A stretch of 64,000 nt of DNA from the NCBI RefSeq assembly GCF_017348835.2, contig NZ_CP071375.1. One strand, given 5' to 3'. Source of the stretch: Escherichia coli (GTDB lineage Bacteria; Pseudomonadota; Gammaproteobacteria; Enterobacterales; Enterobacteriaceae). Position numbers: made by a program. Shown here one piece after another: positions 30,334-33,300 of the stretch; within the stretch, counting starts at the first letter, position 1, and each line of letters begins with the position of its first letter.

Positions 30334-33300
30334 TCAGAATTAACTTAACTGTGAATCATGATGTTTTTAGCATCCTGATAAGAGCTAAAAGTTTTAACGC
30401 TACGTTGTCAGATGGTCAACGCAACGAAAAACAATTCAGATTTTCTTTATAAGAATAGCTGATATTTATTAAGTTAATATTAAGCAGTGAAATTTAGTCT
30501 ATAAGATAATTGGCAAAAAAAAGCCCGGCGCAATATACGCCAGGCCTCAATTTATTGTTAGTTAAATAAGATTAATCCAGCCATTCAGTATGGAACACAC
30601 CTTCTTTATCAATGCGCTTATAAGTATGCGCACCGAAATAGTCACGCTGTGCCTGGATCAGGTTCGCAGGCAGAACAGCGGCGCGGTAGCTGTCGTAATA
30701 GGCAACCGCAGCAGCGAAGGTAGGAACAGGGATACCGTTCTGTACTGCATAAGCAACGACATCACGCAGCGCCTGCTGGTAGTCATCGGCAATTTGCTTG
30801 AAGTACGGAGCCAGCAGCAGGTTAGCGATCTGCGGATTTTCGGCATATGCATCAGTGATTTTCTGCAGGAACTGCGCACGGATGATGCAGCCAGCACGGA
30901 AAATCTTCGCGATTTCGCCGTAGTTCAGATCCCAGTTGTACTCTTCAGACGCAGCACGCAGCTGAGAGAAGCCCTGGGCGTAAGAAACGATTTTGCCCAG
31001 ATACAGAGCACGACGAACTTTTTCGATGAACTCAGCCTTGTCGCCAGCTGGCTGCGCTTGCGGGCCAGAGAGAACTTTAGACGCGGCAACGCGCTGATCT
31101 TTTAGAGAAGAGATATAACGTGCAAACACAGACTCGGTAATCAGCGACAGCGGTTCGCCGAGATCCAGCGCACTCTGGCTGGTCCATTTGCCCGTACCTT
31201 TATTTGCTGCTTCATCCAGAATCACATCAACCAGGTAGTTACCGTCTTCATCTTTTTTGGTGAAGATATCTTTAGTGATGTCGATCAGGTAGCTGCTCAG
31301 TTCACCGTTATTCCACTCGGTAAACGTCTGCGCCAGTTCTTCGTTGGAAAGATTCAGGCCACCTTTAAGCAGAGAATAGGCTTCAGCAATTAACTGCATA
31401 TCACCGTATTCAATACCGTTGTGAACCATTTTCACATAGTGACCCGCACCATCGGCACCAATATATGTAACGCACGGTTCGCCATCTTCAGCAACGGCGG
31501 CGATTTTGGTCAGGATCGGAGCAACCAGTTCATAGGCTTCTTTCTGGCCACCAGGCATAATGGAAGGACCTTTCAGCGCGCCCTCTTCACCACCGGAAAC
31601 ACCGGTACCGATAAAGTTAAAACCTTCGGCAGAAAGCTCACGGTTACGACGAATGGTGTCCTGGAAGAAGGTGTTACCACCATCAATGATGATGTCACCT
31701 TTATCGAGGTATGGCTTGAGGGAATCAATAGCAGCATCCGTCCCTGCACCTGCTTTCACCATTAACAGGATGCGACGAGGCGTTTCAAGAGATTCAACAA
31801 ACTCTTTCACCGTATAGTAAGGAACCAGTTTCTTGCCTGGATTTTCGGCAATCACTTCTTCCGTCTTTTCACGGGAACGGTTGAAAATAGAGACGGTATA
31901 ACCACGGCTTTCGATGTTGAGCGCAAGGTTGCGCCCCATCACTGCCATACCGACGACGCCGATCTGTTGCTTTGACATTGTTTACTCCTGTCAGAGGGTG
32001 GTCACCGCGATTTATGCACGGCTTGAATGTATTGCTGATGTTAACTCAGGATGAAGCCAGGTAGATAGCGTAAGATGTGATTCACGATGGTATTAAACAA
32101 ATGCTTTAGCAAAGGAAGGGTCAAATGGTCCCTCTTTCACCTCCATCATGAGAGCACGAGGAGACAAGCATTTGACACTGTGTATGTCTCCCGGAGAAAA
32201 CTCCACAATGTTAATTTCTGTATTTTCTCCGACAATAAATTGCTTAACGACTTCTCCATCTTTGCCATGCAAACAAACCTGAAGCTGGCCCTGCATGACG
32301 ATAAACATTTCCCACTGATGAGGAAGTTCATGGAAATGAGGTTCTACATAGCTACTACTGACCAGGGCAATGAGTAGTCGTTGCACCTTATCCTGATGCG
32401 AACTATGCATCAAAAGATGGGAACGCAGGCGCTCGGATTGCTCTGCTTGTTCGTATAATGCCTCAAGCTGGTCATTATCAATTAATCGCATTGCATGCCT
32501 CCAGCCTCATTTCTATCGTCCGCGCCGCAGACTCAACGGAGAACTGCTCTTTTAACAACTTGTTCGCGCCCAGACCAAATCGCTGGCGCGCATCAATGTC
32601 ATAAAGCATTAACAGCGCAGAATGGTAAAGCTTGTCATCCTCTCCATTGATATGGATTAATCCTGCGTTATTTTGATTGACGATGTCGAGCAGATCATTT
32701 CCAGCATTCACGCTACCTAATATAGGTAGAGACTGAACCATGTAACCTAACAACTTACCCGGAAAATTGTGAGAAGAGTGTTTGGCAGAAAGAGAAAACA
32801 GGCCTATATCCATTTCCGATAAGATGAACTTAAATTCTTCCTGATTCACCGAAGCCAGATACGTGAAATTCGACAATGCCCACTCAGTAGCCAGAGAGTT
32901 AATTAATTCCACTTCATCACCCTGGCCAATGAACAGGAAATGAGCTTGTGGATGCTCTGCCATACTTCGGGCAAGACGCATAAGATTTGCCATATCCTGT
33001 GCATGCCCGATATTTCCTCCATAGAAGAAAATCACTTTATCCTCTAGACCGAGGCGCTTACGCAGTGGCACATATTCTGGGGATAATACCGTCGGCGTGA
33101 GAGATGCCCAGTTACGTAGAACTTCGCAAGGATAGCCCTTGTTTGTCACCCGAAAAACATCAAGGTTTTTATCAGACATGAGTCCAATACGGTTTGCCTG
33201 ACGATAAGATGATCTTTCAAAGAGACGAAAATAACGTTCAATTGGGGATCCCTCTTTTAGCATTCCAGCATCAATTACCCATTGAGGAAACATATCTCTC

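Follow-up and report, generated by a model that had tools for sequence, protein, structure and literature searches.

An apparently chimeric gnd allele beside the predicted Escherichia coli O108 O-antigen gene cluster

In the stretch of Escherichia coli DNA analyzed here (64,000 nucleotides, hereafter the window), the housekeeping gene gnd lies beside an O-antigen gene cluster assigned to O108, and it is very probably (about 90%) a chimera with an intragenic crossover. Nucleotides (nt) 1–584 of the gene, its first 40%, would belong to the O108 haplotype, and the remaining 823 nt would come from unrelated alleles. The initial annotation placed gnd directly against a foreign O-antigen cluster, and this stands: the gene is intact and only 114 bp away from wbuC, the last gene of the O108 cluster. 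The same annotation held that gnd hitchhikes with the O-antigen genes. This is right for nt 1–584, in which four O108 lineages show 0–1 differences, and wrong for nt 585–1407, where there are 40–48. Comparing gnd alleles divides the gene in the same way, with a 5′ part of 584 nt specific to O108 and a 3′ part of 823 nt that is closer to non-O108 strains. Both gnd hitchhiking and intragenic recombination have been known since the 1990s, and the position of gnd beside the O108 cluster is a real but ordinary arrangement that has already been explained.

The gene occupies 30572..31978 on the (-) strand, as an intact ORF of 1407 nt encoding the 468 amino acids of 6-phosphogluconate dehydrogenase. 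Pfam recognizes an NAD_binding_2 domain (PF03446, residues 5–174, E = 3e-50) followed by a 6PGD domain (PF00393, residues 179–466, E = 1e-135). The gene is a full-length orthologue of K-12 b2029, from which it differs by 70 nt and 2 amino acids, and the 99.6% amino-acid identity with the K-12 enzyme suggests that Gnd would have the same activity. The allele is 100% identical to gndA in F2_81 (Australia) and PE164 (China), two pig isolates to which the whole window is 99.99–100% identical. The locus keeps the K-12 order and orientation, his-wzzB-ugd-gnd-cluster-galF-wca. On the far side of gnd is ugd, encoding UDP-glucose 6-dehydrogenase (29158..30324, (-), GC 0.434), and directly past the gnd stop codon a consensus scan predicts a terminator-like hairpin with a 13-bp stem and a T run (30520..30548, (-)). 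On the other side, the intergenic spacer between gnd and wbuC (31979..32092, (-)) measures 114 bp, with a GC content of 0.456. A small ORF called GndA has been described within the +2 frame of gnd (PMC11230408). In the window allele this nested ORF (31573..31686, (-)) is open and unchanged in length. About 10 of its 36 residues differ from K-12, with the amino acids of the overlapping 6PGD frame unchanged over this stretch. The sequence of the GndA microprotein thus suggests weak constraint.

The O-antigen cluster spans 32093..51016 (-) and, judging from its genes, is the E. coli O108 O-antigen gene cluster. Over 4,043 nt, the wzx and wzy region of the window is 99.9–100% identical to genes annotated as “O108 family” flippase and polymerase, and among 5,426 complete E. 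coli genomes only 5 have matches to these genes. From the annotation of the identical F2_81 locus, the gnd-proximal part (32093..36958, (-), GC 0.43–0.45) is an L-FucNAc module made up of wbuC, wbuB (GT4), fnlC (wecB), fnlB (wbjC), and fnlA, with wbuC itself at 32093..32491 (-). The serotype-specific center (36979..42172, (-), GC 0.34–0.37) contains a glycosyltransferase, wzy, wzx, and a gene for a 529-aa Capsule_synth-like protein. The nine genes that follow (42258..51016, (-)) are annotated as a module for the synthesis of a nonulosonic (8-epilegionaminic) acid. Genes of the cluster encode a 4,6-dehydratase, a LegC aminotransferase, an acetyltransferase, a nucleotidyltransferase, and a cytidylyltransferase, along with neuC and neuB. 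Upstream from the cluster, an ops element GGCGGTAG of JUMPstart is predicted at 51147..51154 (-), from a pattern match and its context CAGTGCACTGGTAGCTGTTAAGCCAGGGGCGGTAGCGT. The genes for synthesizing CMP-8eLeg5Ac7Ac and UDP-L-FucNAc are therefore both present between galF and gnd, and the O108 antigen contains 8eLeg5Ac7Ac, that is, 8-epilegionaminic acid (PMC7685785, which cites Perepelov et al., 2010). With the O108 cluster of Perepelov et al. (2010; through PMC7685785), the window has in common the wzx/wzy identity and the 8-epilegionaminic acid and L-FucNAc gene content; no difference was detected in this comparison, which was made through the “O108 family” annotated genes and gene content.

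A sibling cluster is present in ECZP248, MSI001, FDAARGOS_1277, and CREC_5, with the same nonulosonic-acid and fnlABC-wbuBC modules at about 99.7% identity. In its center, three other genes (two hypotheticals and one wzx-like, at 12150..16000 of loci L008, L009, and L010) replace the GT-wzy-wzx-orf529 set found at 36959..42257 of the window. An NCBIfam search with these central genes matched no O-type model. MSI001 and FDAARGOS_1277 also have an O8 wzm/wzt cluster located between wzzB and hisI, and a K (group 4) antigen may be what the galF-gnd cluster specifies in these two genomes.

The five O108 genomes represent four lineages, with F2_81 and PE164 making up that of the window. When the window is aligned with the three other lineages, OkiPb01688, GPT21-003, and YF-1, a block of about 99.9% identity common to all O108 lineages extends over 31395..51504 (-). 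It contains 17–32 differences in 19.8 kb, while each flank diverges by about 3%. Toward gnd, the block stops at 31394/31395 (gnd nt 584/585), where the dense SNPs of the flank finish at 31391, 31393, and 31394 (nt 585–588). On the galF side, the junction is at 51412..51505 (-), with the galF stop codon at 51439. After one shared SNP at 51412, SNPs become dense at 51505 or 51535 in each of the three other lineages, within the last 66–96 nt of galF.

Several other differences between these genomes were seen along the window. The wzzB gene (28500..29160) of YF-1 differs from that of the window by 13.8%, far over the flank level of about 3%, and judging from this divergence it appears to have undergone an allelic replacement independent of the O108 cluster. 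A 408-nt segment (30221..30628) is identical in the window and in OkiPb01688/GPT21-003, with 3–5% divergence on both sides. It runs from the 5′ end of ugd across the ugd-gnd spacer and takes in the final 56 nt of gnd, and is by its alignment pattern a further short recombination patch. Between wzxC and wcaK (56470..56850), offset BLAST hits reveal repeats spaced by about 96 nt and 91–93% identical. These look like REP/BIME-type intergenic repeats, and the window's lineage and the other O108 genomes differ by one repeat more or fewer. Finally, the yefM-yoeB toxin-antitoxin pair is absent from the window's lineage (window 20357..20573), and is found between hisL and yeeZ in the other O108 genomes and in ECZP248 (loci L002, L004, L005, and L008).

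Within gnd, the contrast between the two segments is clear. The O108-linked hitchhiking segment, nt 1–584 (31395..31978, (-)), shows 0/584 differences between the window and OkiPb01688, versus 40/823 in the unlinked nt 585–1407 (30572..31394, (-)); this gives p = 4e-10 in a Fisher test and p = 0.0005 by max-chi2 permutation. With YF-1 the counts are 1/584 versus 48/823 (Fisher p = 9e-11). In the control comparison with K-12, the differences are spread over both segments (33/584 versus 37/823), and there is no breakpoint (p = 0.57). The 5′ segment is at least 99.8% identical (99.8–100%) in 5/5 O108 genomes and in 0/5,421 others, the best non-O108 match among the latter being 99.1%. Three non-O108 genomes match at 99.1%. 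One of them, strain 162.2, was checked for a related cluster, and its galF-gnd interval contains just a GT2 gene and galE. The 3′ segment is 94–95% identical to the other O108 lineages, and its best non-clonal matches, at 98.3–98.8%, are in non-O108 genomes. It is also a patchwork, as the non-O108 genome A16 has 0 differences from the window in nt 589–875 and then 10 in nt 876–1407 (0/287 versus 10/532, with p about 0.02 by a rough estimate on few sites). Genomes whose gnd is less than 95% identical to that of the window make up about 28% of the collection; at the same threshold, the 20 kb of flank beyond his gives less than 0.1%. The band of 80–90% identity holds 773 genomes for gnd and 769 for the wca flank (53900..64000), which hints that one large group of E. 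coli genomes has a long, highly divergent wca-to-gnd tract.

In the window's lineage, the crossover interval is gnd nt 577–584 (31395..31402, (-)), bracketed by nt 576 (31403), where the window has the O108-type base, and nt 585 (31394). The non-O108 genomes A16 and 2011C-3911 show 24–29 differences from the window in nt 1–576, and only 0–2 from about nt 585–589 to nt 875. This fall from high to low divergence is what confines the crossover to eight nucleotides. A search of the 5,426 genomes of the collection for a relative close enough to be clonal with the window's lineage, yet of another O type, gave none; apart from F2_81 and PE164, flank identity reaches at most 98.8% on the left and 97.5% on the right. 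Homology across serogroups begins 22–72 nt upstream from the gnd ATG (about 32000–32050): in BLAST with the query starting from window position 32092, 2011C-3911 aligns from 93 and A16 from 43. By these alignments, the cassette's structural edge is in the gnd-wbuC spacer, and the crossovers are several hundred nucleotides inside gnd.

Two further junctions are found in gnd, at nt 589–617 in the OkiPb01688/GPT21 lineage and at nt 370–386 in the four genomes with the sibling cluster. There are thus three independent junctions, two of which are 5–40 nt apart. This spacing could point to a preferred crossover zone at about nt 370–620 of gnd, in which independent O-antigen transfers resolve nearly together, but we consider such a zone very unlikely. 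There is no Chi site in or near gnd, the nearest being at 18555 and 41846. By our estimate, two of three junctions would fall within 40 nt of each other over the first 600 nt or so with a chance of about 10%, and erosion of hitchhiking tracts toward the cassette would be enough to crowd junctions into the 5′ half of the gene. Given three junctions in all and no nearby Chi, the closeness of these two is within chance. That a hot zone at about nt 370–620, shortly after the NAD-binding domain gives way to the C-terminal one, fixes the extent of serogroup-linked gnd is a long shot. If true, it would account for the success of partial-gnd typing in some O groups and its failure in others.

Base composition does not locate the crossover. 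An abrupt shift just past gnd had been reported in the initial annotation and taken as the recombination boundary. There is in fact only a mild step from 0.50 to 0.44 at this place, and the O108 block ends inside gnd, where there is no composition signal (GC 0.493 versus 0.505 across the end of the block). GC is 0.52–0.58 in the his genes, 0.473 in wzzB, 0.434 in ugd, 0.316 in the ugd-gnd spacer, 0.500 in gnd, 0.432–0.447 from wbuC to fnlA, 0.336–0.370 in the GT, wzy, wzx, and orf529 genes, 0.378–0.485 in the nonulosonic-acid module, 0.508 in galF, 0.480 in wcaM, and 0.54 in wcaL and wcaK. The gnd gene is a small GC island flanked by lower-GC stretches on both sides, ugd being as low as the cluster end. 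The cluster is low in GC overall, with segments of 0.446, 0.361, and 0.453 versus 0.546–0.550 in his and wca. Its low-GC signature is only mild where it starts, at wbuC (0.44), and is strong after another 5 kb (0.34–0.37). The step on the gnd side is blunted because the L-FucNAc module, with its GC of 0.43–0.45, is the gnd-proximal part.

Applied to the window in full, recursive likelihood segmentation with permutation p-values makes cuts at 5973, 21007, 28942, 36784, 45685, and 53492, and places no cut at the gnd/wbuC junction. Within 28943..36784, the significant sub-cuts are 30627 and 31198. The first corresponds to the 3′ end of gnd against the ugd-gnd spacer and its GC of 0.32. The strongest drop in the cluster, at about 36784, separates fnlA from the next glycosyltransferase, about 5 kb beyond gnd. 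The cut at 31198, inside gnd, was considered as a recombination junction and rejected, as the same profile is present in K-12 and five other alleles. The GC of gnd runs 0.49 / 0.43–0.46 / 0.54 / 0.36 in every allele examined, K-12 included. Since every E. coli gnd allele examined has this native profile, composition is blind to the crossover.

A second possibility is that gnd was imported whole, or is native as a unit, and that the junction is the composition step in the gnd-wbuC spacer. The step does exist, with a naive z of 3.2–3.6 in 1,400-bp windows, and it is in this spacer that cross-serogroup homology starts. However, measured at 31978–32092 it amounts to 0.016–0.056 with 500-bp half-windows and to 0.060–0.068 with 1,400-bp half-windows. 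At 500 bp it is larger than at 82% down to 32% of window positions, and at 1,400 bp larger than at 88–92% of them; it ranks in the top 8–33% of the window at scales of 1,000–1,400 bp, and lower at 500 bp. Equal steps are found between native neighbors, at ugd/gnd (0.066) and wcaM/wcaL (0.065). The best remaining split near the gnd/wbuC junction, at 32009, is far from significant (2LLR 3.8, permutation p = 0.62). Checked by sliding-window GC, the junction is at best a mild step, and the sharp steps of the window are those at 30627, 31198, and about 36784. Moreover, O108 identity continues through the spacer and 584 nt of gnd before it collapses, and a junction in the spacer is highly improbable. 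A chimeric pattern could also arise with no recombination if the 5′ part of gnd, which encodes the NAD-binding domain and overlaps the GndA small ORF, were under strong purifying selection or were a mutational cold spot. This can practically be dismissed: these 584 nt differ at 24–33 sites (4–6%), nearly all synonymous, from K-12, A16, and 2011C-3911, so that they are no less free to vary than the remainder of gnd, and the 5′ identity is limited to O108 genomes.

A chimera with an intragenic crossover could have formed in the following way. O-antigen clusters travel between E. coli lineages as cassettes, via homologous recombination, with crossovers falling in gnd and galF, the conserved genes on either side. 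The flanking DNA from the cassette to the crossover is carried along, and later recombination with local alleles erodes this carried-along tract. In the window's lineage, the gnd-side crossover is inside the gene, at nt 577–584. While the gene identities, block limits, crossover interval, and composition statistics are shown here, it is from the comparison of four O108 lineages that we infer the order, direction, and full extent of the transfer events.

The biological importance of this arrangement is small, since galF-cluster-gnd is a textbook layout and gnd polymorphism is driven by linkage. Base composition is a poor guide to the crossover in an O-antigen replacement. The crossover falls within flanking genes that look native, and allele comparison is needed to find it. 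There is also a consequence for typing. The published gnd typing amplicon of 284 bp (PMC5429811) corresponds to gnd nt 443–725 (window 31254..31536) and spans the junction at nt 585. The O108 lineages differ at 7–10 sites within it, and O108 would therefore give at least three gnd sequence types. O-group typing from partial gnd can thus split one serogroup.

Set against compositionally bounded genomic islands, the O108 cluster is similar in its low GC as a whole (0.34–0.47), compared to 0.55 in his and wca. It differs in that its edge is graded and modular and does not come as one step at the flank. GC is intermediate in the gnd-proximal fnl/wbu module, and the native neighbors ugd, wzzB, and wcaM are also low. 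Entry would here be by homologous replacement, which puts the crossover in native-looking DNA. The other comparison is with classical gnd/rfb hitchhiking. Bisercic, Feutrier, and Reeves in 1991 and Nelson and Selander in 1994 reportedly described gnd hitchhiking with rfb together with intragenic recombination, and Tarr et al. are said to have described such hitchhiking for O55/O157 in 2000. A passage in PMC5429811, citing Nelson and Selander (1994), has gnd as a passive hitch-hiker and a mosaic. In the classical cases as in the window, gnd is hypervariable, its alleles are correlated with O type, and it is a mosaic with internal junctions. The mechanism would be the same, homologous recombination in the genes flanking the O-antigen cluster, and the gnd of the window is no different in kind. 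The only new detail is specific to O108: the junction at nt 577–584 in the window's lineage, and the linkage to O108 of the first 584 nt alone.
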